Source: an uncultured Candidatus Saccharibacteria bacterium
Lineage (GTDB): Bacteria > Patescibacteriota > Saccharimonadia > Saccharimonadales > 2-12-FULL-41-12
Assembly (NCBI GenBank): GCA_964648105.1
Contig: CAZYMH010000004.1
Coordinates: 6,083 to 70,082, forward strand
Length of the DNA: 64,000 nucleotides
Reading direction: 5' to 3'
Shown here: piece by piece, positions 4,730 through 48,028 of the stretch
Layout: each line of letters begins with the position of its first letter
How positions within the stretch are numbered: the first letter of the stretch is position 1
Translations under genes and position numbers: made by a program
Notes under the pieces: model-generated
The model's database searches: none
What the model saw: only the letters and a program-made list of their open reading frames with translations
What the model was told of the DNA's origin: nothing

Positions 4730-5278
4730 ATGCAATTAGGATTTTTGCAACCACTAGAGTCAGCATTGGCTGATTTGTTTAAAAGTTTACCAAACTTACC
4801 AAAAGGCTTTACCGATTTTTTGGCTAAAATCGCACCAATATTAACTTTAATCTTCGGAATTTTGGGTGTATTATCTGCTTTTGCACTTTTTAGATGGGTA
4901 AACCGAGTCGATAATACTGTCAATAATTTAAACGATTTAGCTAGAAGTTATGGCGTTGATACAGTCAGTCACAGTTGGTCAGTAATGGTTATAATCTCTT
5001 TGATTGCCATGTTATTAACATCAATCATTTATATAATGGCTTACTCACCACTTAAACAATACAAAAAATACGGTTGGGACTTACTATTCTTGGCTTTCTT
5101 AGTTAATCTAGTTTCAAGTGTTGTGACTTCATTTAGCGATTATGGAACACCATCTAACTTAGTCGGCACAGTCATAGGTGCAGCTATTGGCGGCTACTTA
5201 TTGTTCCAAATGCGTCCCTATTACACTGGTCATGCTAAAGTCGATGCACGCCCAAACCCAAAAACTACTGACAAATAA
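4730..5278 (+). CDS. Hypothetical multi-pass membrane protein
   Basis: 182 aa with about four hydrophobic helices; GGAGGGG Shine-Dalgarno just upstream of ATG. Confidence 0.5.
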   Translation: MQLGFLQPLESALADLFKSLPNLPKGFTDFLAKIAPILTLIFGILGVLSAFALFRWVNRVDNTVNNLNDLARSYGVDTVSHSWSVMVIISLIAMLLTSIIYIMAYSPLKQYKKYGWDLLFLAFLVNLVSSVVTSFSDYGTPSNLVGTVIGAAIGGYLLFQMRPYYTGHAKVDARPNPKTTDK

Positions 5279-5299
5279 TATCTCAGTTAAATATTCTAA

Positions 5300-5332
5300 G
5301 AAACCCTGATTTTATTTCAAAATCAGGGTTTC
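5300..5332. terminator. Bidirectional terminator hairpin overlapping the last ileS codons
   Basis: Perfect 14-bp stem GAAACCCTGATTTT / AAAATCAGGGTTTC with 5-nt loop between convergent genes. Confidence 0.6.
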
Positions 5333-8256
5333 TTTATGCCGACTGTTAAGATGTTTTTTTCGATTTCAACTTGTTCTTCATAATCAAGATTCGAATCAGT
5401 TATTTTTGTAGCTAGAGTTTCAGTTTTGATTACTTGCTCAAAATCTTTGATAGCAGATTTTAGTTCTTGATTACTAGTTTTGAGAGATAATTCAATGCGA
5501 TCATCAACATTTAAATTGGCATTTTTACGGGCATTTTGAACATAACGGATAATCTCACGCATCAATCCTTCACTTTTTAGCTCAGGGCTAATTACAGTAT
5601 CAAGCTTTACTTCCAAAGGTTGTAGTTTGTCTTGACTGCCACTAACCGAAAACTTCAATTCTTTAACATTAAGTTCTTCTTTAATTATTGGAATATAGAA
5701 TTTTTCATTATCGTTTTTTGCTGATTCAGCTTCGAGTATTGATAATAGTGCTGGATTTGGATTGATTATTGTAGCTGATTGTAATGGACGGCGAACTTTT
5801 ATATTTTGTTTTGCCCTAATACTTAGGCCGTCATTAACGACTTTCCTCACTCCATCCATTCGATTAACTGTTAACTCATCAATTTCCCCAGCCTCTTGCC
5901 AATCTTTTAAGTGGATTGACTGTGAATCATTAGTTAGATTATGATAAAGTTCTTCTGCTAAAAATGGTGTAAATGGTGCCAAGACGTAGGCTAACCTCAC
6001 TAAGACATAATGTAAGGTTTTATAGGCATCATCTTTATCGCTATCGTCTTCACTTTTCCAAAATCGGCGACGAGACCTTCGAACATACCAGTTACTAGCG
6101 TCATCTAAAAATGGCAAAATCCCTTTTAACGCAGATTGTAAGTCATAATTATTAGTTTCATTTTCAACTTCTTGAGTCAAAAGATGTAATTTCGATACAA
6201 TCCAAATATCAAGCGGATTTTTGAGGTTTTTAAGTGGATTATTAAGATTCCCATCATATCGCCACTCATCAACTTCGGCATACATCGTGAAGAAGTCATA
6301 CATATTCCAAATCATACTTAATTTACGGCCAATGTCAGCAACATCTTTATCATTTAGTGCAAAATTTTCGCCGTTTGTCAGTGGTGAACTCAACATCAAG
6401 AACCTAAAACTATCAGCCGAAACTTTATCCATAAGTTCATTTGGGTCAGTATAATTTTTGAGTTTTTTACTCATTTTTTTGCCGTCTGATGCATTTATGT
6501 GACCAGTGCAAATAAGATTTTTCCATGGTGCTTTGCCGAATAAACCAACGTTCACAGCTAGAAGACTATAAAACCAGCCACGAGTTTGATCGATAGCTTC
6601 GATAATAAAATCACTTGGGAACATTGAGTCGAACTTTTGTTGATTTTCAAAAGGATAATGAAACTGAGCAAATGGCATCGAACCTGACTCAAACCAACAG
6701 TCTAGTACTTTGCCGATATGAGTCATTTGAACACCATCGCACTCGAATGTAACGTGCATAACCTCTGGTAAATGATAATCGTCTAATTGTTTGCCCGTTA
6801 GTTGCTCCAATTCTTGGTAACTACCAATTACTTTTACTACTTCGGTGCCATCCGGTCGTTGACCTTTCCACACAGGTATTGGTGTAGCCCAATAACGATC
6901 ACGACTTAGATTCCAATCAGGTGCTTGTTCAATAATGTTATTAAATCGACCAGTCCGTAAATTATCAGGATTCCAGCGGGTGGCCGCGTTTTGTTCTAGC
7001 ATTTCTTGTTTTTGAGACTGAATATCCATAAACCAGCTAGGGTGTACTCGGTACATAAGCTTTGTGCCGCACCGATGGCAATGAGGATATTCGTGCCTAA
7101 TATACTCGATTTTGAGAGCTTTTTGTTCTTCTAATAAAGTTTTCGCGATTAGTTTGTTAACTTCCCAGATATTCTCTCCGAGCCAGCGGCCCGATGTATA
7201 ATTTCCGTTTTCATCAACATTCGAGACAATCGGTACTTGCTCTTGTTTACAAAGTTCGTAATCTTCTTCGCCGTAAGCTGGAGCTTCATGAACCAAGCCT
7301 GTGCCATCGTTCACCGATACAAAATCAGTAGCTAATACCCGATGAGCTGAGGGACCGTGATTTTCGAATAGCGGTTCATATTTTTTGCCAACCAACTCTT
7401 TGCCCTTCACCGCTTCAAGCACAGAAAACTCAAGCGGTTGTTTTTTTTCATTTTGCATGACTCTACTTATCGCTTCAGTGGCAATATACATTTTTTTGTT
7501 TTGATACTCAATTAGAGAGTATTCTTCGTTAGGATTAACGGCCACGGCAACATTGGCTGGCAGGGTCCAAGGTGTAGTTGTCCAGATAAGGAGGTATTCA
7601 TCAACATTATCGAGTTTGAAGTAAACATATATGCTCGGGTCAGTGTCAAGTTGGTAACTATTCTCCATAGCGACTTCACTTTTACTTATAGGCGTGGCAT
7701 CCTTGGTGCAGTAAACTAAGATTTTTTCACCTTCGTAAATCTTTCCTTTGTCATATAGCTCTTTGAATGCCCACCACACACTTTCCATGTATTCTTTGTC
7801 CATAGTTTTATAGGCACCTTCAAATTCTACCCACCGTCCGATTCGATCGATTGTGTCTTCCCATTCTGTACCAGTTTTTACCATCGCTTCACGACATTTT
7901 TTGACGTATTCTTCGATACTAATTTTTGTGCCGATTTCTTTTTTATTTTTGATTCCGAGCTGCTTTTCGACATAAACCTCAGCTGGTAAGCCATGACAAT
8001 CCCATCCCCAAGTCCGCTCGACCCGTTGACCTTTCATCGTATGAAAGCGACCCATGGCGTCCTTGACGGCACTTACCAACAAATGACCATGATGTGGTGT
8101 ACCTGTCAAGAAAGGCGGCCCATCATAAAATACCCACCTATTTTCCTCAGGACGATTATCGACTGACTTTTTAAATGTATCGTCTTTTTTCCATTTGTTT
8201 AGCCAATATTTTTCATATTCGATAGCTCGACGCCGTGTATTAGATTTGAATTTCAT
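5323..8256 (-). CDS. ileS: Isoleucyl-tRNA synthetase
   Basis: 977 aa; HIGH-type GTPHHGHLL, GWDCHGLPAE, KMSKKLKNY (KMSKS) motifs. Confidence 0.9.
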   Translation of the reverse strand: MKFKSNTRRRAIEYEKYWLNKWKKDDTFKKSVDNRPEENRWVFYDGPPFLTGTPHHGHLLVSAVKDAMGRFHTMKGQRVERTWGWDCHGLPAEVYVEKQLGIKNKKEIGTKISIEEYVKKCREAMVKTGTEWEDTIDRIGRWVEFEGAYKTMDKEYMESVWWAFKELYDKGKIYEGEKILVYCTKDATPISKSEVAMENSYQLDTDPSIYVYFKLDNVDEYLLIWTTTPWTLPANVAVAVNPNEEYSLIEYQNKKMYIATEAISRVMQNEKKQPLEFSVLEAVKGKELVGKKYEPLFENHGPSAHRVLATDFVSVNDGTGLVHEAPAYGEEDYELCKQEQVPIVSNVDENGNYTSGRWLGENIWEVNKLIAKTLLEEQKALKIEYIRHEYPHCHRCGTKLMYRVHPSWFMDIQSQKQEMLEQNAATRWNPDNLRTGRFNNIIEQAPDWNLSRDRYWATPIPVWKGQRPDGTEVVKVIGSYQELEQLTGKQLDDYHLPEVMHVTFECDGVQMTHIGKVLDCWFESGSMPFAQFHYPFENQQKFDSMFPSDFIIEAIDQTRGWFYSLLAVNVGLFGKAPWKNLICTGHINASDGKKMSKKLKNYTDPNELMDKVSADSFRFLMLSSPLTNGENFALNDKDVADIGRKLSMIWNMYDFFTMYAEVDEWRYDGNLNNPLKNLKNPLDIWIVSKLHLLTQEVENETNNYDLQSALKGILPFLDDASNWYVRRSRRRFWKSEDDSDKDDAYKTLHYVLVRLAYVLAPFTPFLAEELYHNLTNDSQSIHLKDWQEAGEIDELTVNRMDGVRKVVNDGLSIRAKQNIKVRRPLQSATIINPNPALLSILEAESAKNDNEKFYIPIIKEELNVKELKFSVSGSQDKLQPLEVKLDTVISPELKSEGLMREIIRYVQNARKNANLNVDDRIELSLKTSNQELKSAIKDFEQVIKTETLATKITDSNLDYEEQVEIEKNILTVGIKKP

Positions 8257-8261
8257 ATTTT

Positions 8262-8490
8262 CTCCTAAAATAAAAAAATCATTTTATTTTGACTGCCAGA
8301 ACCCGATTAATTTAGGGCGGTACCATCTGACTTCCAAAACAAATGATTTGTTATTGGCTCTTATTTATTCGATTTCGTTCGAAATTATATTTACGGTAAG
8401 GTCTACTTGGCATTATTAATGCTTTTCTTCTTACAGACATTCATGGCTGATAACCATTAACGAGAGTTTACTCGATGTCTCTAATAATAT
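8262..8490 (-). promoter_or_regulatory. T-box riboswitch leader of ileS (specifier AUC)
   Basis: Minus-strand RNA has AGAGA (8478-8482) and hairpin AUGG-UUAUCAG-CCAU (8443-8457). Then GUAAG...CUUAC plus CCGUAA, and Stem III at 8338-8352. Antiterminator GUCAGA[UGGUACC]GCCC...GGGUUCUGGC at 8295-8331. Extended -10 TGATAAAAT at 8491-8499. Confidence 0.65.
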
Positions 8491-8556
8491 ATTTTATCAT
8501 AATTGCCAAAAAATATATTAAAATACAAACATTTATATCTGTAAAAGTAGTTGTTT

Positions 8557-8610: not shown

Positions 8611-9804
8611 ATGAAAGTATTAATGCTGGGCTGGGAACTTCCGCCACACAATAGTGGCGGTTTAGGAGTCGCCTGTTTACAGCTCTGTAAATCTCTTGCC
8701 AAAAAAGGTGCTGACATAACTTTTGTGGTACCATATACTGCCAAACATGATTTAGACTTTATGAATGTTGTATCTGCAAAAATTGCCGATGTTTCGTCGA
8801 TATTAGGCGTATACGACTCCAAAGAATATACCGAAACTAAAGACTTGTCCCTAAAAGGCAGTGCCTATGAAATCCAAAATCGCTATGTTGAAGCAATTGC
8901 CAAAATGAGCTTTGGTAAAGAATTTGACGTTATTCATGCACACGATTGGTTAACATTTAGAGCAGGGCTACGAGCCAAAGAACTTCTCGGAAAACCATTA
9001 ATTTTACATGTTCATTCCATCGAGTCCGATCGAGCTGGCGGAAAATCTGGCAACCCTTTGGTCCATGAGATAGAGTATTTATCATTTTTACTAGCCGATA
9101 AAATTGTGGCCGTTAGTGAGCTTACTAAACAAAAAATAATCCAAGAATATGAAATTCCTGCTTATAAAATAATTGTTGCCCATAACAGTATTGATTTTGA
9201 CGATATGGAAAATTTGACTAGTGATAATTCATACAAACTATTAACTCAAATGAAATCGAAAGGTTATAAAATCATTGGCAGTGTTGGCCGAATAACTATT
9301 CAAAAAGGCTTGTCTAATTTATTAATTGCTGCTCAGATTGTCATCCAAAAAGAGCCAAAAACTATTTTTTTGATTGTTGGATCTGGCGATCAGCTACGCG
9401 ATCTTATTCAATTTGCTGCTCATTTGGGAATCAGTCAAAATGTAATTTTTGCGGATTTTCAGCGTGGTAAATATTTGCGGGATGCCTTTGGGGTAGCTGA
9501 TTTATTTATTATGCCATCTGTATCGGAGCCATTTGGTCTTACACCGCTCGAAGCAGCGTTTTATGGAACTCCATCATTAGTTTCTAAACAATCTGGTGTA
9601 GCCGAAGTACTCAAAAATTGCCTCAAAGTTGATTTTTGGGACACCGATAAAATGGCTGATCAAATAGTTAATTTTGTTAGGCACGATGGACTTGGAAATT
9701 CTTTGCTAGCGAATGTTCAGATGGAGTTACGAAAAATGAGCTGGGATAATAGTGCTGATATTTTGATGAATACTTATCGATTACACAGAGGTGCGACTGT
9801 ATGA
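8611..9804 (+). CDS. Glycogen/starch synthase-like glycosyltransferase (GT4/GT5, archaeal type)
   Basis: 397 aa; N-terminal KVLMLGWELPPHNSGGLGV (K-x-GGL-like), C-terminal PSVSEPFGLTPLEA GT-B motif. Confidence 0.7.
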   Translation: MKVLMLGWELPPHNSGGLGVACLQLCKSLAKKGADITFVVPYTAKHDLDFMNVVSAKIADVSSILGVYDSKEYTETKDLSLKGSAYEIQNRYVEAIAKMSFGKEFDVIHAHDWLTFRAGLRAKELLGKPLILHVHSIESDRAGGKSGNPLVHEIEYLSFLLADKIVAVSELTKQKIIQEYEIPAYKIIVAHNSIDFDDMENLTSDNSYKLLTQMKSKGYKIIGSVGRITIQKGLSNLLIAAQIVIQKEPKTIFLIVGSGDQLRDLIQFAAHLGISQNVIFADFQRGKYLRDAFGVADLFIMPSVSEPFGLTPLEAAFYGTPSLVSKQSGVAEVLKNCLKVDFWDTDKMADQIVNFVRHDGLGNSLLANVQMELRKMSWDNSADILMNTYRLHRGATV

Positions 9805-10997
9805 GCCGATCAATTGTCTTGTATATGCACGTGCATCAACCATTTAGGGTAAGGCCGTATACAATTTTTGATGCAGGCCAAAATTCTAACTACTTTTCTG
9901 CCGACTATCACGACCGAACATCTAATGAACGAATTATGCACAAAGTAGCTGAAAAATCATATTTAGCTACCAATCATCACTTGCAAAGATTACTTGATGA
10001 ACATCCTGAATTTAAATTCAGTTTATCGATTACTGGTACGGCTATCGAACAAATGCAAATGTGGAGTCCAGCAAGTTTAGAATCATTCCAGAGGTTAACT
10101 CATACTGGCCGAGTTGAAATTGTAGCAGAAACATTCCATCACTCACTCGCCTTCTTCTATAATCGTGCAGAGTTCGAAGCTCAAGTCGATAAACACCGAC
10201 AATTGATTCAAGATTTATTTGGTCAAACGCCTACGGCATTCCGTAATACAGAGTTGGCTTACAATAATGACTTGGCTTATTGGGCCGACCAAAAAGGCTA
10301 TAAAGTAATCTTAGCCGAGGGTTGGGATCCAGTTTTGGGCTGGCGAAGTCCAAATTTCGTTTATCAACCAACATATACCGACGGTAATCTCAAACTACTT
10401 CTAAAAAATTATAAACTGTCCGATGATATAGCCTTCCGTTTCGGTGATCGACACTGGAAAGAATGGCCCTTAACCGCCGACAAATTTACTCATTGGCTTA
10501 ATGACTCTGGTCAGGCCACCAATTTTAATTTATTTATGGATTACGAAACATTTGGCGAGCATCAATGGCATGAATCAGGTATTTTCGACTTTTTGTCACA
10601 TCTACCTAAACACTGGTTAGCTGGGCATGACAATAATTTTATGACTGTCAGCGAAGCTGCTGATAGTTACCAAGCAGTTGACCGAGTTGACATGCCTCAT
10701 GTGGTTACATGGGCCGATACCGAACGCGATTTGTCTGCTTGGATGGGCAATGATATGCAACATCAATCGTTACAAGCCATTTATAGTCTTACCGACAAAA
10801 TTTTAAATTCCAACGATCAAAAACTGATCGAAGATTGGCGAAAACTCCAAACTTCTGACCATTTTTATTATATGTGTACCAAATGGTTCAACGATGGCGA
10901 CATCCACGCTTATTTTAGTCCGTACGAAAATCCGTATGATGCATTTATTTACTTCATGAATGCTTGGCAAGACTTACGTCTGCGGAGTGAATATTAA
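9801..10997 (+). CDS. Glycoside hydrolase family 57 (alpha-amylase / glucanotransferase type)
   Basis: 398 aa; N-terminal LYMHVHQPFR and DYETFGEH motifs typical of GH57; ATGA overlap with upstream gene. Confidence 0.7.
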   Translation: MSRSIVLYMHVHQPFRVRPYTIFDAGQNSNYFSADYHDRTSNERIMHKVAEKSYLATNHHLQRLLDEHPEFKFSLSITGTAIEQMQMWSPASLESFQRLTHTGRVEIVAETFHHSLAFFYNRAEFEAQVDKHRQLIQDLFGQTPTAFRNTELAYNNDLAYWADQKGYKVILAEGWDPVLGWRSPNFVYQPTYTDGNLKLLLKNYKLSDDIAFRFGDRHWKEWPLTADKFTHWLNDSGQATNFNLFMDYETFGEHQWHESGIFDFLSHLPKHWLAGHDNNFMTVSEAADSYQAVDRVDMPHVVTWADTERDLSAWMGNDMQHQSLQAIYSLTDKILNSNDQKLIEDWRKLQTSDHFYYMCTKWFNDGDIHAYFSPYENPYDAFIYFMNAWQDLRLRSEY

Positions 10998-12952
10998 TGG
11001 CCAGATCAGTGATCCTAAGTAACGGCCACTTAGTCGTTGGCTTAAACGAGAAAGGATTGGTGCATGATTTTTACTTTCCTTACGTTGGACTCGAAAACCT
11101 AACAACTGCCCGCAGTATGCACCACCACATCGGTATATGGGTAGATGGCGTGTTTAGTTGGCTAACCGACAACTCATGGCAAACCTCGGTTCATCACGAC
11201 GAAAACTCTCTGACTTCTTTTTGCACTTACAAAAACGATAGCTTAAACTTATCGATTCAGTCGAAAGATTTTGTCGATTACGAGCTAAATGCTTTTTGCC
11301 GAATTTTTGAGGTAGAAAATCGTGCCAATGTCGAGCGTGAAGTTAGGCTATTTTTTCATCAAGTATTTGAGATTAGCAAATCAGGTCGCGGTGATACAGC
11401 TATGTACGTTCCTCATAGCAACTCGATTTTAGATTACAAAGGCAAAGTATGTTTACTAATTTCGGGCCAAATAAGCAATACTAATCAATATTTTGATCAA
11501 CATTCGGTTGGTAATTATCGGATCGAAGGCAAAGAAGGAACCTACAAAGATGCTGAAGATGGTGAACTGTCAGGTAACAATATCGAGCATGCTGGTGTAG
11601 ATTCGGTAATTAGATTTAGCCTAAAGATCCCTGCTAATTCCAAAGGCTCGGTAGATTATTGGGTAGCCGCTGCGGATTCTCAGCCTGCCTGCGAGAAAAT
11701 TCATTTTATATTAGAAAATGGCTTAAGCCAGCGGTTTATCTCTAATCAAACTTATTGGCAAGAATGGTTGAGCCAAGCAAATAGTCAAATCTCTAGTTTA
11801 TCACCCGAAATTCAGCGACTAACGAAAATTTCATTGATGGTGATTAAAGCTCACATCGATAAAGGTGGTGGAATTATCGCCTCTTGTGATTCTTCGATCT
11901 ATAACTATGGACGCGACTATTACAGCTATGTCTGGCCAAGAGACGGAGCTTATGCAATCTGGCCATTAATACGACTTGGTTACACAGAGGAGCCAAAAAA
12001 GTTTTTTGAGTTTGTATCTGATATTGTAAATCTCGATGGTTATTTGATGCACAAATATCAACCTGATCAAGCCATAGGTAGCACTTGGCACCCATTAATT
12101 CGCAATGGTAAAACTGAACTAGCGATCCAAGAAGATGAGACAGCAATAATCGTCGTGATGCTGGGCGAATTTTTGCAATATTCTAACGACCAAGAATTCA
12201 CACAACATATTTATAAAAATTTCGTCCGCTTGGCTGTTCCCTTTTTGATTAATTTTATTGATGCAACAACAGGTTTACCGCATGCTAGTTATGATTTGTG
12301 GGAAGAGAAATTTATCACTTCTACCTATACCACCGCCATTGTCTATAAAGCGTTATTAGTTGCTGCAGATTTAGCAAAAACATTCGGTGAAGATGAGCTT
12401 AGTTCGAAATGGCAAAGTGCAGCCGATAGCTTACTTAGCAAGTATAATATTTTTATCAACCCAGACACCAAAGTTTTTCGAAAAGGATTTATTTTAGATT
12501 CCGATGACTCGCTTAAATTTGATGAAACTATTGATGTGTCGAGTTTTTACGGAGTCATGACATTCGGATATTACAATAATTCCAACTCATCTGATCTTGT
12601 GAACGCCGTCAAACACCTAGAAGAAACGCTTACAAATCCCAATAGTTTGGGCTTTCCACGGTATCAGAACGACAATTATTTCCGAAAAGATCAAAATTCA
12701 CTTCCAAATTCGTGGATTATAACTACACTTTGGGTTGCCCAGTATTATATCCGAGTTGGAGATTTGAAAACTGCTTGGAAATATATTGAATGGGTACAAA
12801 AAATGGCTAGTGAAAGCGGCATGCTACCAGAACAGATCGACCCATATAATGAAAGCCCAGTGTCAGTAACTCCTCTTGTGTGGAGTCATGCTGAATACAT
12901 TAATACGATATTAGACCTCAAAAATAAGTCTAACAAAAATATTGATAAATAA
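10997..12952 (+). CDS. Glycoside hydrolase family 15 (glucoamylase-like)
   Basis: 651 aa; YSYVWPRDGAYA and LWEE / PEQIDP motifs of the GH15 (alpha/alpha)6 barrel; TAATG overlap with GH57 gene. Confidence 0.7.
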   Translation: MARSVILSNGHLVVGLNEKGLVHDFYFPYVGLENLTTARSMHHHIGIWVDGVFSWLTDNSWQTSVHHDENSLTSFCTYKNDSLNLSIQSKDFVDYELNAFCRIFEVENRANVEREVRLFFHQVFEISKSGRGDTAMYVPHSNSILDYKGKVCLLISGQISNTNQYFDQHSVGNYRIEGKEGTYKDAEDGELSGNNIEHAGVDSVIRFSLKIPANSKGSVDYWVAAADSQPACEKIHFILENGLSQRFISNQTYWQEWLSQANSQISSLSPEIQRLTKISLMVIKAHIDKGGGIIASCDSSIYNYGRDYYSYVWPRDGAYAIWPLIRLGYTEEPKKFFEFVSDIVNLDGYLMHKYQPDQAIGSTWHPLIRNGKTELAIQEDETAIIVVMLGEFLQYSNDQEFTQHIYKNFVRLAVPFLINFIDATTGLPHASYDLWEEKFITSTYTTAIVYKALLVAADLAKTFGEDELSSKWQSAADSLLSKYNIFINPDTKVFRKGFILDSDDSLKFDETIDVSSFYGVMTFGYYNNSNSSDLVNAVKHLEETLTNPNSLGFPRYQNDNYFRKDQNSLPNSWIITTLWVAQYYIRVGDLKTAWKYIEWVQKMASESGMLPEQIDPYNESPVSVTPLVWSHAEYINTILDLKNKSNKNIDK

Positions 12953-13273: not shown

Positions 13274-13349
13274 TGGAGCCACGATCGGGATTTGAACCCG
13301 AGACCTCATCCTTACCATGGATGCGCTCTACCAACTGAGCTATCGTGGC
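13274..13349 (-). tRNA. tRNA-Thr (anticodon GGU), CCA encoded
   Basis: Reverse complement GCCACGA...TCGTGGC-U-CCA; anticodon arm CAUCC-AUGGUAA-GGAUG; T-loop GGTTCAAATCC. Confidence 0.85.
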
Positions 13350-13423
13350 AAAATATTTAGTATATTATAACAAAAAGATTGAACTTTAACAGATTATTTG
13401 CTAAACTTTTAGCTAATGTAAGT

Positions 13424-13500
13424 GCCACCTTAGCTCAGCTGGTTAGAGCATCTGTTTTGTAAACAGAGGGTCGTCGGTTCGAATCCGACAGGTGGCTCCA
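13424..13500 (+). tRNA. tRNA-Thr (anticodon UGU), CCA encoded
   Basis: GCCACCU...AGGUGGC-U-CCA; anticodon arm UCUGU-UUUGUAA-ACAGA; T-loop GGTTCGAATCC. Confidence 0.85.
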
Positions 13501-13513
13501 TTTTTATTTACAT

Positions 13514-13598
13514 GCAGGGATAGTGAAGCGGTCAAACACGACTGACTGTAAATCAGTTGGCTCAGCCTTCGGGGGTTCGAATCCCTCTCCCTGCACCA
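13514..13598 (+). tRNA. tRNA-Tyr (anticodon GUA), long variable arm, CCA encoded
   Basis: GCAGGGA...UCCCUGC-A-CCA; anticodon arm ACUGA-CUGUAAA-UCAGU; variable arm UGGCUCAGCCUUCG. Confidence 0.85.
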
Positions 13599-13643
13599 AA
13601 ATAGAAGAAGTATGCCGCAATTTTAAGCGGCTTTTTATTTTGT
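13577..13643 (+). repeat. Direct repeat copy 1: 3' end of tRNA-Tyr plus its terminator
   Basis: 67 bp; intact terminator GCCGC-AATTTTAA-GCGGC-TTTTT; 61/67 identical to copy 2, which lies 190 bp downstream. Confidence 0.8.
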
Positions 13644-17365: not shown

Positions 17366-17392
17366 AAAAACACCCTGCACGAGGGCAGAGTG
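17366..17392 (-). terminator. Rho-independent terminator after rpsI
   Basis: Minus strand CACUCUGC-CCUCGU-GCAGGGUG followed by UUUUU. Confidence 0.6.
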
Positions 17393-43729: not shown

Positions 43730-44128
43730 CTAGTCACCACCGCGACGAAGTTGTTGGCCTGCCCACTGCCAGATAGTCTGGCTTTCGCCTGACCTCTGAG
43801 CGTTTGAAGTGGTCATTTCTTCGTTAGAGTCCATCTTTTCTCTGGCCCCACGGATACCGTCAATAAGAGCGGCGAGGCCAGAGATAACTTCGGCGGAAGA
43901 AGCTTGGCCGTTACGACTTTTGGTCGTCGCTCCAGTCAGCTTCTCGCCGTAGAACGTCAAGCACTGCCCTGCAGTTTCCAAGACCTCCAGCAACTCGACA
44001 AAAATCATGTCGCTGGCGACCAGGATGTCGGCGTCTTTGGTTGACAGCCCACACTGGTCTTCCAAAGACGCTCTTCGCTCACTCTTTGACATCTGAGTGA
44101 GCATTTGCAAATCTACGCGGTCGGACAT
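43730..44128 (-). CDS. Hypothetical helical cytoplasmic protein (132 aa)
   Basis: The ATG at 44128 has a strong AGGAGGAGGT SD; ORF-track GTG at 44176 is less likely. Confidence 0.45.
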   Translation of the reverse strand: MSDRVDLQMLTQMSKSERRASLEDQCGLSTKDADILVASDMIFVELLEVLETAGQCLTFYGEKLTGATTKSRNGQASSAEVISGLAALIDGIRGAREKMDSNEEMTTSNAQRSGESQTIWQWAGQQLRRGGD

Positions 44129-44200
44129 ACCTCCTCCTACACTAGAGTGGGTGACACCACAAACTTCAGATATCACCCTGATTGGACAACTTGTAGTTTA

Positions 44201-46018
44201 TCAAAGCTTGAATCGATCCGTCGAGCTGACGGTCGAATTCTGGCTTTTTGGCGACTTGAGCTGACTACTCTTGCTGGCGAAGCCCAGGATACCGTAAACA
44301 GCGAAAACGAGTTGCTGTCTCATAATCCAGGCCAAAACCAGCATGCCGAGCAATGCCAGGTACTCCCACTTCAGCTCGAGAGCTGACGAATCTTGAACCG
44401 AATCGTCAACACCGAGATGTGAGTAGCGACGCGACTTCTCACGGTTGTACTCGTCACGCACCTTGGAAGTACAAGACGCGAAGTTCTGCTCGGTCGAAAC
44501 TTTGCAAGACTTGGCAGTTGCCAGAGCCACCAATGACGCAGGCCGCTGAACGAGCGGGTAAAGACCCAGAACGTTCATGTTGGCATAACAATCAGAGCTT
44601 TCGCCCTTACAAACTCGCTTAGCCAGCTTGGCCTGCTGGTGGTTACCTGCCATTACGCTACTCGCGAACTGCTTGGCAGGAGCAGTAAGCTCCTTCTTGC
44701 CCAGCTTGGCTACATAAGTAGCCTGCGACCAACTGGCCTGCTGCCTGATGGCCTTGACATACAAGCCGTACAAAGCCGCAGGAGTAGTCTTCTGGTCGTG
44801 CGTGAACCGACTGTTCTTCTCGGGCAATCGGTCATGCATCTTATCCCGCCAGCTGTCGAACAACGAGCTTGCCGTAAGGCAAACTGCTTCATTGTTCTTA
44901 TTGCTCTGGGGATTGCACTTTGCAAATGCAGGCCCATAGACCTTGACTGTCTGGTTAAACCAACGGTCTTGGTCCTTAAGTCGTTCTGCTGCAAGCTTCA
45001 GCTCAATATGTGAGATGAAAAAGTGCGACAGACGACTGTTGGTACGACCATCGGCGTAGCGTTCGGCAGTAGCCTTCAGCTTGTTCAGCTTCGGGTAGCC
45101 GTTTGGCACGCCTTTGACATCCTTGTCGATGATCACATCCAGCCGCCGCTGAGTCTCGAGCAGCGGGTTCTGACGCAGGAACGCTAGCATATACTGCCTA
45201 GCAATGTTCCTGCGGCTAGCGGGTGAGCTTTTGCTCATCAGATCTGCTGTTGCACCGCGGACCTTACGAGCTTCGGCAAAACAACCTTTCCAGCCGAACT
45301 CACGCCGATGTTCCCAGCAGAGTTCCGCAAGGAACGCCTGCTTCTCGCCAGTCCGTGCCAACACGCGGTCAGCCCGAGCTAGTCTGGCGGGAGCCATCAA
45401 AATGTTCTTGAAGACAACTTCCAGTCTGCTCATCCGACCTTGGGACGAACCAACCTTACGGCAACTCGTGACACCCTTACGGATGACCACAAATTGGCCA
45501 TTGCGAATCCTGACGTACTTTTCGCCGCGGTTTCCCGTGACGATCGTGCCAGAGATGTTCGGTCCAACTTTGCCCGTCCGACTGGTGTCAAATGTGTTCG
45601 GTCCCGAATGAGTCCAAACGTAACCTGACAGAGCCGTGCAGCTGACACGATTTCCCTTCTGACCCATCGACATCGCCACAAGCTGGTTGACCTGCGATGT
45701 TGATGTCGTCGGGTAGTACTCTGCTTCTACCACAGGGGTAGCTTGCTTAGCCGTCGTCTGGGCTACTCTCCGAGGAGAAGTGTAGCTAGTCGTCGGCAAC
45801 GGCACGTAAGCAGAGGTTCGCGGCGTTTGCACAGGCGGTGTCGGCGATGGCACATGGGCGTCCGAGGCCAGCTGGATATTCAACCCCTTGGGGGTGTTTC
45901 CATCTGCCCGCTCGACGGCCACGTAGTCAGCGTAGCTGTCTTGCCCAACTGCGGTCATCGGTGCCAGCAGAGCTGACACTGCGATGACTCCAAAGAGCCA
46001 TTTGGTTCGGTTGTGCAT
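44201..46018 (-). CDS. Large secreted orphan (605 aa) with C-terminal TM anchor
   Basis: Signal peptide ...LLAPMTAVGQD, Pro/Thr-rich linker, many Cys, hydrophobic WEYLALLGMLVLAWI near the C-terminus. Confidence 0.55.
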   Translation of the reverse strand: MHNRTKWLFGVIAVSALLAPMTAVGQDSYADYVAVERADGNTPKGLNIQLASDAHVPSPTPPVQTPRTSAYVPLPTTSYTSPRRVAQTTAKQATPVVEAEYYPTTSTSQVNQLVAMSMGQKGNRVSCTALSGYVWTHSGPNTFDTSRTGKVGPNISGTIVTGNRGEKYVRIRNGQFVVIRKGVTSCRKVGSSQGRMSRLEVVFKNILMAPARLARADRVLARTGEKQAFLAELCWEHRREFGWKGCFAEARKVRGATADLMSKSSPASRRNIARQYMLAFLRQNPLLETQRRLDVIIDKDVKGVPNGYPKLNKLKATAERYADGRTNSRLSHFFISHIELKLAAERLKDQDRWFNQTVKVYGPAFAKCNPQSNKNNEAVCLTASSLFDSWRDKMHDRLPEKNSRFTHDQKTTPAALYGLYVKAIRQQASWSQATYVAKLGKKELTAPAKQFASSVMAGNHQQAKLAKRVCKGESSDCYANMNVLGLYPLVQRPASLVALATAKSCKVSTEQNFASCTSKVRDEYNREKSRRYSHLGVDDSVQDSSALELKWEYLALLGMLVLAWIMRQQLVFAVYGILGFASKSSQLKSPKSQNSTVSSTDRFKL

Positions 46019-46030
46019 GATATCTCCATT

Positions 46031-46747
46031 TTAGGAGTCTTTGACAGGGATAAACTTGATTTGGGTTGACCCAATGCCCAGCATGACTAGTCCCAGAATG
46101 AATACTGCAGTCCACGAAAATTCCGTAGACTCGTTGCTCGCCCGGGACTGATTCTTCATGCCATCCTTGAGAGGATAGCCTACAACAATCGGAGCTTCCT
46201 CAACTACCTCAGAGGATTTTCCAGGTTGAGTAAATAGCCCTCGACTAGGGTCACCACCCAACTCTGAGTAATAATCTGAGACATTACCGACCCAATGGCT
46301 GTTAAGTCCGCCTGGATCGTTAGATGCTCCAACAGGACACCATTTGGCACCGACTTCGGCTACTGACTGTCGGGTCCGATAGTTCTCACCCAATAGTCTT
46401 GCCGCCGCTCGGATGCCATGTTCCCATGAAGGACCAAGCGTCCATCCAGGACCAATCCCCCATGCGTTATGCTTGGAGATGTTTTGAGCATCTCCTGTGG
46501 TGCCAAAATGACTTTCAGCACCAGAAATAGCTACCAGTAACCGTGGGTCAACGCCATACTCATTTCCCCATCGGACAAAGTCTTTGCCGTGTCCAACAAG
46601 TGGTGAATTTGACACTTTCCCTTCGATATACTGATCGATTCTTTCAGCAAGGCCATTGCTGGATGTTGCAGCCACTGGCACCATCATGCCTCCGAGGAGG
46701 ACTATTATGGCCGCCAGTAGGCACTTCATCTTGCTAAAATACACCAT
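46031..46747 (-). CDS. SLT/lysozyme-like peptidoglycan glycosidase (VirB1-like role?) with C-terminal TM
   Basis: 238 aa; signal peptide; YGVDPRLLVAISGAESHFGT...HNAWGIG resembles the lytic transglycosylase E-S catalytic block; AAGGAGGTGA SD. Confidence 0.5.
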   Translation of the reverse strand: MVYFSKMKCLLAAIIVLLGGMMVPVAATSSNGLAERIDQYIEGKVSNSPLVGHGKDFVRWGNEYGVDPRLLVAISGAESHFGTTGDAQNISKHNAWGIGPGWTLGPSWEHGIRAAARLLGENYRTRQSVAEVGAKWCPVGASNDPGGLNSHWVGNVSDYYSELGGDPSRGLFTQPGKSSEVVEEAPIVVGYPLKDGMKNQSRASNESTEFSWTAVFILGLVMLGIGSTQIKFIPVKDS

Positions 46748-46788
46748 TCACCTCCTTAGGGAGTGAAAGTTGTCTTAGTCGGCGTAAG

Positions 46789-46977
46789 TTACCTCTTTGA
46801 CCACAGCTTGGTGAATGCCAGCAGCACCATTGCTACGACCAATAAGGTAACGAACAGTATAAGATGGGCCAATACAGTTATCGCTATGCCGATGGCACAG
46901 ACGCTTGCGATGGCCCCTACCGCCAGTTGCCTAACACCTTGCGGTGCAGGCACAGGACGATGATGATTACCAGCCAT
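46789..46977 (-). CDS. Small 2-TM membrane protein (62 aa)
   Basis: The ATG at 46977 overlaps the upstream gene stop (ATGGCTGGTAA); two hydrophobic helices. Confidence 0.4.
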   Translation of the reverse strand: MAGNHHRPVPAPQGVRQLAVGAIASVCAIGIAITVLAHLILFVTLLVVAMVLLAFTKLWSKR

Positions 46978-48028
46978 TGCCAATTACCACCTTGTCTGTC
47001 GTGGTCGAAGTCGGAACGCTTTTGAGCTTCAGCCCATCGACGTAACTGACCTCAATCCGAACATCAAAACCCTTTGCTCTCAAGTCCTCGATCTGCTGCT
47101 TGTTAGCAGCTTTGATCAATTTCTCGATTTGTGGACGGGTGTTGTCCTGAGCCTGCTGCAATGCTGACCGCCCGCCAAACGACTTATCATCGCTAGGGGT
47201 GGTAGCTAACTTATAGGCACGGTCAAGAGCCAGCGATTGTGCTGAGTTGGCTTTGCCGTCATCGGGGCCAGCGATTAAGCTAGCCATCCGATACAGGATA
47301 CCGCCTCCAGAACTGCCATGAAAATGCGTGGCTTTCTTACCACACCTCTCCCAGGCTGCTCCGAAGTCGTCGGCCATGACACTATCAGACAGATGGTACT
47401 GCTGCCCCTCAATGTAGAGAGATGCGTACCGCCTGATGATGTTGGGCCTCGGAACTTGAACCGAAATCACGTAGACTGGCTTTTTGCCAGGCACAGTCGG
47501 TCCATATTCACGATCACCCTTGATGCTTTGTTCGATGTACCACGACAGGCTGTCGATTCCGACAGGGAACCTGCCGAGGGCATCGAGCTTGATCTTGCTC
47601 GAGTTGAACAAAAAACCGAGCAGGAACTTCTTGGGGATATCGATTTCCCCGCCATTTACTACATTTGGCACGCAGAAAACGATGTCGCTAGTAATGTAAG
47701 TGTCCTGGGGAGACACAAACACAACTGGTGGTCCTGTGGACTCCAGTTTATGGGCGAAAATGCTTTCTAGCCGATTGATTACAACCCATGACAGGCTGAA
47801 CACGACCAGAACCACTGCGATAAGAGCCGAAGCTCTGACCCATGGGTGGTACTTCTGCAATGTGATGTTATCTCTCTTGCCGATGCGATGCATCAACCAG
47901 AGAAAGCCGATCAACCCGATTACGGATATCCCGACTGGAATCATCAGTAACCATAGTGGCTGATCGAAGTCGATCTTCAGTGGACCAAGCTGTATCAAAA
48001 CAGCTGGTTGGCCAAAGAAAGGCGACAT
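46967..48028 (-). CDS. Membrane-anchored orphan (353 aa)
   Basis: AGGAGGTGA SD; two N-terminal TM helices followed by a soluble domain of about 260 aa. Confidence 0.55.
   Translation of the reverse strand: MSPFFGQPAVLIQLGPLKIDFDQPLWLLMIPVGISVIGLIGFLWLMHRIGKRDNITLQKYHPWVRASALIAVVLVVFSLSWVVINRLESIFAHKLESTGPPVVFVSPQDTYITSDIVFCVPNVVNGGEIDIPKKFLLGFLFNSSKIKLDALGRFPVGIDSLSWYIEQSIKGDREYGPTVPGKKPVYVISVQVPRPNIIRRYASLYIEGQQYHLSDSVMADDFGAAWERCGKKATHFHGSSGGGILYRMASLIAGPDDGKANSAQSLALDRAYKLATTPSDDKSFGGRSALQQAQDNTRPQIEKLIKAANKQQIEDLRAKGFDVRIEVSYVDGLKLKSVPTSTTTDKVVIGNGW

Follow-up and report, generated by a model that had tools for sequence, protein, structure and literature searches.

The ileS leader and its gene

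The stretch of DNA analysed here, termed the window, comprises 64,000 nucleotides of an uncultured Candidatus Saccharibacteria bacterium (assembly GCA_964648105.1, contig CAZYMH010000004.1, positions 6,083 to 70,082), and encodes on its minus strand the isoleucyl-tRNA synthetase (IleRS) gene ileS, with a leader at window positions 8494..8252 (minus strand) lying upstream of ileS. This leader is almost certainly a T-box specific for tRNA-Ile, and its features taken together are probably best explained by a tRNA-Ile-responsive T-box that would control ileS through a non-canonical termination read-out. Homologues of the ileS product bear the name isoleucine--tRNA ligase and contain class-I synthetase and anticodon-binding domains (PF00133, PF08264), the closest relatives (72-77% identity) belonging to Saccharibacteria/Nanosynbacter; the 80 related genomic loci all derive from Candidatus Saccharibacteria, Nanosynbacter or Saccharimonadales, in agreement with the placement in the Candidate Phyla Radiation (CPR) proposed by an earlier reading of the letters alone (the sequence-only reading). 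The T-box parts that this reading had listed upstream of ileS were each located, by direct reading of the minus strand, at the position claimed. The elements of the locus are given below from the gene through the leader in 5′ to 3′ order, with the basis of each assignment in brackets.

5323..8256, minus strand: ileS, isoleucyl-tRNA synthetase, 977 aa, the regulated gene (open reading frame (ORF) list and homologues)
8475..8480, minus strand: 5′ strand AGACAU of the Stem I basal helix P1, pairing with 8435..8440 (sequence read)
8461..8474, minus strand: hairpin P1a, CGAG-UAAACU-CUCG, first arm of a three-way junction (covariation)
8443..8457, minus strand: specifier hairpin AUGG-UUAUCAG-CCAU (sequence and covariation)
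8435..8442, minus strand: GA linker (8442..8441), then the P1 3′ strand AUGUCU (8440..8435) (sequence read)
8396..8434, minus strand: Stem II, GUAAG (8434..8430)/CUUAC (8400..8396), enclosing GAAGAAAA and AGUAGA, the S-turn/purine-string motifs (covariation)
8368..8395, minus strand: Stem IIA/B pseudoknot (per-sequence search)
8358..8362, minus strand: 5′ purine string AAGAG (RRRxG), 5′ of Stem III (motif per PMC7583486)
8334..8357, minus strand: Stem III, CCAA(U)AACAAA-UCA-UUUGUUUUGG (covariation)
8332..8333, minus strand: AA linker from Stem III to A1 (sequence)
8295..8331, minus strand: antiterminator-type element composed of A1, bulge and A2 (sequence and covariation)
8331..8326 and 8300..8295, minus strand: A1, GUCAGA/UCUGGC (sequence read)
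8325..8319, minus strand: 7-nt bulge UGGUACC between A1 and A2 (sequence read)
8318..8315 and 8304..8301, minus strand: A2, GCCC/GGGU, with the G.U closing pair G8318-U8301 (sequence read)
8276..8292, minus strand: segment D, UCAAAAUAAAAUGAUUU, 3′ strand of the long-range helix T, pairing with 8349..8334 (minimum-energy fold)
8267..8278, minus strand: U-run UUUUUUUAUUUU (U7AU4), beginning inside helix T and continuing directly after it, the proposed termination point
8254..8266, minus strand: Shine-Dalgarno (SD) sequence AGGAG (8266..8262) and ileS start codon ATG (8256..8254) (sequence)

Identification as a T-box

With a leave-one-out covariance model, built from other genomes' leaders only and excluding the window sequence, the window leader scores 129.8 bits (E~1e-30), and the model finds no other credible match within the window. 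In a permissive scan, the Rfam T-box model RF00230 aligns over its whole length to 8493..8294, scoring 27.8 bits; the E-value is 2e-4 when the 421-nt leader region alone is searched and 0.031 for all 64 kb. This is the best non-tRNA match of the window, ranking after three tRNAs, and the 57-nt distal Stem I of the model is reduced in the alignment to 22 nt. The best relatives reach 30.6-37.2 bits with the same model. Folding of the leader alone gives an unremarkable minimum free energy (MFE) z-score of -1.47.

A covariance model made from an alignment of 27 non-redundant leaders was used to search 80 Saccharibacterial ileS loci, and the leader was found in 75 of them, on the ileS strand every time. 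At least 33 loci had appeared to be without a T-box in a motif search, a result that was rejected when the covariance model located the leader 0.3-2.5 kb further upstream; the loci missed by the motif search are those in which other genes are inserted between leader and ileS. Scanning of metagenomes with the discriminator signature as a DNA pattern yielded 30 further leaders on metagenomic contigs, with the specifier AUC in 26/26 complete hits and an IleRS gene downstream on the same strand in 26/30, that is, wherever the flank was long enough. AUC is present in every full-length leader with a readable specifier, and the leader persists, accompanied by compensatory changes, in IleRS lineages as distant as 59% identity as well as in the metagenomes.

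The fold itself, consisting of seven helices (P1, P1a, the specifier hairpin, Stem II, Stem III, A1 and A2), was scored on a sequence-only MAFFT alignment. Across the 27 leaders 91.9% of cells are paired and 26/35 pairs have changed on both sides, with 0/500 shuffles as good and the best slid control reaching 49% paired; the covariation analysis of orthologous ileS leaders for which the sequence-only reading had called came out in favour of its architecture. Counts of individual hallmarks, given below, are based on 71 distinct leaders.

Stem I, the specifier and Stem II

Stem I forms a three-way junction in which P1 encloses P1a and a 4-bp hairpin displaying a 7-nt specifier loop. The equivalent of the basal helix in relatives is 3 bp long, 80% paired, and changed on both sides at 2/3 pairs, and P1a is variable, with 5/5 pairs changed on both sides among the 27 leaders. 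The specifier stem is 100% paired with 4/4 pairs co-varying; its loop presents the Ile codon AUC at 8451..8449 (minus strand), with the purine A next at 8448. All 12 of the commonest loop types, representing 67/71 distinct leaders, conform to NNAUCNN, as do the complete metagenomic hits, so that a short Stem I with an Ile codon and following purine in its apical loop, as recognised by the sequence-only reading, is seen in the window and its relatives alike. The specifier hairpin is followed by GAA in 53/71 leaders, the window equivalent being the GA linker and the first A of AUGUCU. The AGAGA at the 5′ end, which had been counted among the T-box parts, is not conserved in relatives and is no AG-box of the kind found in long Stem I's.

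Stem II, GUAAG...CUUAC, was correctly recognised from the window sequence and is 99% paired across relatives, with 4/4 pairs co-varying; its distal hairpin is GCAUU-AAU-AAUGC, and the enclosed motifs GAAGAAA and AGUAGA are conserved, with AGAA and UAGA cores that are invariant or nearly so. The pseudoknot that follows is composed of IIA, CGU (8395..8393)/ACG (8378..8376), and IIB, UUCGA (8383..8379, the 3′ end of the IIA loop)/UCGAA (8372..8368). Under a positional rule, IIB pairing of at least 3 bp occurs in 85% of the 71 leaders vs 34% of shuffles, through many different complementary pairs. The pseudoknot also displaces a second proposed part: CCGUAA (8396..8391), formerly likened to the F-box, starts with the final base of the Stem II 3′ strand and continues through the IIA 5′ strand into two bases of the loop. 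Homology places the F-box at the IIA 3′ strand (ACGAAA in the window, CCCGUAA/CCCGUUA in relatives).

Stem III and the antiterminator-type element

The RRRxG purine string and the AA linker that flank Stem III are each present in 67/71 leaders, and RRRxG-Stem III-AA corresponds to the discriminator purine string of Li et al. 2019, as far as that work is summarised in a review (PMC7583486). Stem III was evaluated on a 76-row alignment in which segment D was aligned as unpaired sequence; it is 97.4% paired, 8/9 pairs have changed on both sides, and 0/500 shuffles are as good, the energy of the stem in the window being -5.8 kcal/mol.

The antiterminator-type element is of similar quality, with A1 97.5% and A2 96.3% paired, both showing extensive compensatory changes, and with GAUGGUACC retained in 70/71 leaders. 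Stem III, A1/A2 and the UGGUACC bulge, as delimited by the sequence-only reading, are therefore all in place, the helices co-varying and the bulge conserved. The closing pair of A2 is G.U in 51/71 leaders and U-A in 14/71, and a G.U pair closing A2 next to the bulge has been described as a steric sensor of the aminoacyl group. The bulge of one relative (L034:2764-3006) reads UGGAACC in place of UGGUACC and would pair with a U73 tRNA; in the same leader the segment just ahead of the U-run has as its partner, in place of Stem III, the antiterminator 5′ side.

A long-range helix ending at the U-run

Segment D, 15-17 nt long across leaders, lies 3′ of the antiterminator. Its partner is the Stem III loop together with the 3′ strand of that stem (8349..8334), which form the 5′ strand of helix T. 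This helix is 89.8% paired in the 76-row alignment, slid controls remain at or below 63%, and a covariation score as high as that observed was obtained in none of the shuffles. Covariation with D is seen in the columns of the Stem III loop (AU10/GC9, UA14/CG5, CG11/UA8/UG5), which is explained only by direct pairing, and also in the foot pairs (GC50/AU10/GU6), which indicates that D invades the full strand and does not simply form a loop-loop kiss. Support for Stem III is independent of that for helix T, in that outer pairs lying outside helix T are also counted; the two helices share a strand and therefore cannot coexist. In ordinary T-boxes, according to PMC11404447, Stem III matters at its ends only, so that stem and loop vary freely; the loop is here conserved or co-varying because of its dual pairing constraint, in Stem III and with D.

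A classifier in which each leader was folded alone, and the partner of the ten bases 5′ of a U-run of at least four was recorded, assigned these bases to the Stem III region in 62/64 distinct leaders, and returned the canonical partner for a control, the thrS T-box L119 (described below), and for the relative L050. The window has an energy of -16.3 kcal/mol in the fold with Stem III closed (ON) and -22.4 kcal/mol in the D-paired fold (OFF), relatives typically having about -21 vs -34 kcal/mol. A1/A2 stay intact in the OFF fold, nested in helix T. A terminator mutually exclusive with A1/A2 through their 3′ strands was found in one leader among the 64, that of L050, and the mutually exclusive pair present instead is Stem III vs helix T.

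A simple terminator scan found no local GC-rich terminator in the leader, because the proposed terminator helix is long-range. The sequence-only reading, which saw no competing GC-rich terminator and only an A/U hairpin, holds as regards the missing local GC-rich hairpin and fails as regards competition, since a long-range helix does compete and ends at the U-run; the A/U hairpin belongs to this conserved helix with Stem III.

In L028, L029, L030, L033, L058 and L076, Stem III has an extra hairpin of 30-130 nt in its 5′ half, and segment D continues to pair with the Stem III loop and 3′ strand that remain, which identifies the 3′ half of Stem III as the partner essential to D. In L050:2771-3001 (CAYRPO010000010.1), a textbook terminator, UCCUGCGAC / GUCGUAGGA, arises from the A1 3′ strand and is followed by U7, with Stem III intact, providing an internal contrast to the Stem III-type terminator.

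Genomic context among relatives

At least 27/80 loci have their ileS separated from the proposed T-box terminator by between one and three unrelated genes (including L002, L003, L006, L009, L011, L012, L016, L022, L029, L036, L037, L039, L040, L051, L065, L072 and others), beginning about 0-30 nt past the leader 3′ end and each with its own SD. From inspection of their N-termini by eye, the products would be pyrophosphatase-like, CYTH, NUDIX, GIY-YIG-like, DNA methyltransferase plus DUF262-like, inositol-monophosphatase-like, SGNH hydrolase and GNAT proteins. The interval between leader and ileS looks like an insertion hot-spot, the cargo of which would come under tRNA-Ile control.

The same leader occurs at L112:4201-4434 and L113:1-193 (156 and 82 bits), where the downstream IleRS has 36-40% identity to that of the window vs at least 51% in other hits; ileS may have been replaced behind a retained leader, or these loci may represent a deep lineage. 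Several other matches of the metagenome pattern were set aside. Apparent tandem T-boxes in L102 (2 matches) and L120 (4 matches, 147 nt apart) were rejected as coding repeats, which translate to ...GDWNNDGTD..., FG-GAP/VCBS-like, and are no RNA elements. L119 was considered as a second type of CPR T-box and rejected as an ordinary canonical thrS T-box: it lies on a low-GC metagenomic contig, has a long Stem I (11-222; RF00230 100.5 bits), a canonical terminator and a ThrRS gene (314-2248) downstream, and, being a chance match of the pattern, was used as the positive control. The remaining metagenome pattern matches are due to chance.

Scans of the window with the covariance model and RF00230 found no second T-box anywhere within it. 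Another assembly of the same organism carries hisS (HisRS; L202:1113-2525) about 8 kb past the high end of the window, with only about 75 nt of upstream intergenic DNA, too short for a T-box, which together with the single T-box of the window fits an ileS-only T-box regulon.

Proposed mechanism

Given a T-box architecture that is conserved and co-varies, two helices that exclude each other and a U-run next to them, the read-out is likely to be termination through the Stem III-D helix, with a terminator that would compete with Stem III and not with A1/A2. By homology to characterised T-boxes, tRNA-Ile(GAU) would be read by AUC in the 7-nt loop of the three-way-junction Stem I, the Stem II S-turn and IIA/B pseudoknot would support the codon-anticodon contact, the 3′ end of uncharged tRNA would pair with UGGU of the 7-nt bulge, and the purines of RRRxG-Stem III-AA would latch the tRNA complex. 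With no tRNA or with charged tRNA, D would invade and unzip Stem III, possibly nucleating on its conserved loop, and helix T would form up to the U-run with A1/A2 nested inside, such that RNA polymerase stops before ileS. When uncharged tRNA is latched, Stem III would be held shut, leaving D single-stranded and allowing read-through into ileS. Unzipping of Stem III would plausibly abolish sensing. The more specific proposal, that opening and closing of Stem III passes on the aminoacylation signal in an ancient, ileS-dedicated Saccharibacterial T-box lineage in which A1/A2 persist in both states, is only narrowly favoured.

A number of points weigh against this account. Binding of tRNA, termination at the U-run and the coupling of the two are, for Saccharibacteria, deduced from sequence. 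Helix T of the window consists almost entirely of A-U pairs and gains only about 6 kcal/mol over the ON fold, and the 37-nt domain nested in the terminator hairpin may fold more slowly. The partner assignment behind the count of 62/64 relies on MFE folds and by construction favours long helices, which leaves the covariation evidence unaffected. Bacterial tRNA-Ile has the discriminator A73, which is complementary to position 4 of a UGGU bulge; for this genome the anticodon GAU and A73 are predictions, a search of the window, 200 loci and two contig extensions having found no tRNA-Ile gene. The OFF fold leaves A1/A2 undisrupted, unlike every characterised T-box, and the elbow-binding module of long Stem I's, called essential in transcriptional T-boxes by the same review (PMC7583486), is missing from the ileS leader. 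Lastly, an Rfam scan at the gathering score (93 bits for RF00230) reported no T-box in the window; a score below this threshold is what the sequence-only reading had named as refutation, and formally the 27.8 bits obtained fall short of it, but the threshold is judged too strict because bulge and specifier are conserved clade-wide and the whole clade reaches only about 30-37 bits. The negative result is attributed to the bias of the model towards long Stem I's and not to absence of the leader.

Alternative explanations

One alternative accepts a real T-box sensor and denies that helix T is a terminator, regarding it as a closing helix of purely structural role, a signal for pausing or processing, or an element affecting RNA stability, with an output such as Rho, RNase cleavage or decay in place of intrinsic termination. 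Nesting of an intact A1/A2 by helix T, instead of competition with it, would suit such a role, as would partial pairing of the U-run with the A-rich Stem III 5′ strand and the weakness of helix T in the window, and RNase-driven T-box control has a precedent in S. aureus met (PMC7913692). Set against this, a helix that ends exactly at four or more U's in 62/64 leaders is the signature of an intrinsic terminator, the textbook T-box terminator of L050 stands in the same place, which implies the same function for helix T, and the mutual exclusion of Stem III and helix T, both of which co-vary, describes a switch and not a static fold. This alternative is considered unlikely.

Also improbable, and to a greater degree, is the translational read-out suggested by the sequence-only reading, in which tRNA binding would control access to the SD, the mode of action of the ileS T-boxes of Actinobacteria. 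Translational T-boxes typically have a short Stem I whose specifier sits in an apical loop (PMC7583486), the leader lacks a local GC-rich terminator, and helix T and the U-run end in the window 1-2 nt before AGGAG, where a stable helix could hinder 30S binding. The SD is nevertheless mostly unpaired (the probability is 0.66 for the window, and about two-thirds of leaders exceed 0.5), no conserved anti-SD or SD sequestrator was found across the leaders, and the sequence around the SD offers no complement to the 3′ strands of A1/A2. The spacing of U-run and SD ranges from a few to about 55 nt, and at the 27 or more loci where different SD-bearing genes follow the leader, D and the U-run are conserved all the same. 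Classic hairpin-plus-U terminators also occur elsewhere in the window, at 13614-13631 and 17387..17371. From SD accessibility, variable spacing, the intervening genes and these terminators, termination is therefore favoured over SD sequestration.

A canonical T-box, with an overlooked terminator built from the A1/A2 3′ strands and a merely incidental complementarity of Stem III and D, would conform to the arrangement of every characterised transcriptional T-box (PMC7583486) and to that of one relative, L050. It is very improbable here: no complement to GGGUUCUGGC, the A1/A2 3′ strands, is present within 60 nt downstream in the window, 1/64 distinct leaders pairs in that way, and covariation of the Stem III loop with D cannot be incidental. 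Chance resemblance or a decayed, functionless relic, which the Rfam score below the gathering threshold and the leader fold z-score might suggest, is effectively refuted by the compensatory changes across divergent IleRS lineages and metagenomes and by the leave-one-out E-value.

Other features of the window

The ileS stop codon is adjoined by a perfect 17-bp hairpin at 5334..5298 (minus strand), AAGAAACCCUGAUUUUG-AAA-UAAAAUCAGGGUUUCUU (-27.2 kcal/mol, z = -5.8), at the convergent junction with ORF 4730-5278, which is probably a bidirectional terminator; an Rfam match of this hairpin to mir-306 is weak and was rejected as meaningless. Diverging from the ileS leader, an operon at 8611-12952 (plus strand) encodes a GT4/starch-synthase-like glycosyltransferase, a GH57 protein and a GH15 glucoamylase-like protein, which suggests alpha-glucan metabolism. 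A tRNA cluster at 13274-13631 comprises Thr(GGU) on the minus strand and, after it on the plus strand, Thr(UGU) and Tyr(GUA), and is followed at 13614-13631 by the classic terminator GCCGCAAUUUUAAGCGGC-UUUUUAUUUU.

Positions 44001-48000 have a GC content of 0.52, vs 0.36-0.40 in the first 40 kb and 0.43-0.46 in flanking and later DNA. Among the ORFs of this block, those of 605, 353, 287 and 148 aa matched no Pfam family, and one of 238 aa gave weak SLT/glucosaminidase-like matches below curated cut-offs; the block could be foreign or fast-evolving.

Distribution of T-boxes and significance

Surveys have placed T-boxes in Firmicutes, Actinobacteria, Chloroflexi, Deinococcus-Thermus and two Proteobacteria, with T-boxes of Ile-tRNA ligase in Actinobacteria, Chloroflexi and Deinococcus (PMC2494555; TBDB preprint), and the TBDB authors propose that they arose in an ancestor shared by Firmicutes and those groups (TBDB preprint). 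The genomes searched with the TBDB class II model were the reference genomes of Actinobacteria, and the model was also applied to class-I hits whose Stem I was truncated. A full-text literature search found no paper on T-boxes in Saccharibacteria, CPR or Patescibacteria, though an unindexed report or a sub-threshold database entry may exist; the sequence-only reading, too, was aware of none described in CPR bacteria. The leader extends T-box riboswitches to the Candidate Phyla Radiation. With clade scores of 27.8-37 bits vs a threshold of 93, annotation at the Rfam threshold and Rfam-based surveys would miss the leader. The clade-wide occurrence in Saccharibacteria bears on T-box history, and would fit inheritance from the proposed common ancestor.

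A terminator that competes with Stem III would lend itself naturally to testing by what means the Stem III latch links the sensing of aminoacylation with the output; if the proposal is true, the Stem III purine latch is the actual switch, and a T-box without an elbow-binding module acts on transcription, contradicting the generalisation of PMC7583486. As a further prediction, ileS expression would report the supply of isoleucine from the host. Saccharibacteria have reduced genomes, the regulation of which is little understood. A perspective calling for inducible-expression tools in these bacteria names riboswitches as candidates (PMC11665869), and a native tRNA-Ile-responsive leader would be one such tool candidate.

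Comparison with known systems

The closest relatives of the Saccharibacterial leader are the short or 'ultrashort'-Stem-I ileS T-boxes of Actinobacteria (M. tuberculosis/M. smegmatis; TBDB 'class II'). Common to both are the ileS gene and an AUC specifier in the apical loop with a conserved purine after it (PMC7583486, PMC11297988), the lack of an elbow-binding distal module, the Stem II S-turn motif, the IIA/B pseudoknot, RRRxG-Stem III-AA and a UGGN bulge; a short Stem I with apical specifier, combined with an obligatory Stem II domain, is a class II trait (PMC7583486) that the Saccharibacterial leader displays. The actinobacterial elements regulate translation by means of an SD sequestrator, formed with the 3′ strand of the antisequestrator, whereas the Saccharibacterial leader has no SD sequestrator and instead a helix and U-run upstream of the SD. 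It differs further in its three-way-junction Stem I, with the extra co-varying hairpin P1a, and in belonging to a phylum outside Actinobacteria.

With canonical transcriptional T-boxes (Bacillus tyrS/glyQS; RF00230) the leader would have in common intrinsic termination relieved by uncharged tRNA. The canonical terminator takes its 5′ strand from the A1/A2 3′ strands (PMC7583486), as is likewise the case in L119, whereas the 5′ strand of the proposed Saccharibacterial terminator is the Stem III loop and 3′ strand, and A1/A2 survive the OFF fold. Unlike the canonical form, the leader has no long Stem I, K-turn, internal specifier loop, AG bulge or distal loop, and Saccharibacterial leaders score 27.8-37 bits with RF00230 vs 100.5 for the canonical L119. 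A precedent for lineage-specific remodelling of the expression platform is offered by 'stem Sa' of Staphylococcal glyS, an extra structured domain within the terminator (PMC9177973, PMC11404447); stem Sa is an insertion, and the glyS terminator still competes with the antiterminator helices, Stem III being no competitor. Placed among these systems, the Saccharibacterial leader is a genuine T-box, new in its phylum (as far as known), in its three-way-junction Stem I and in the wiring of its putative terminator to Stem III.

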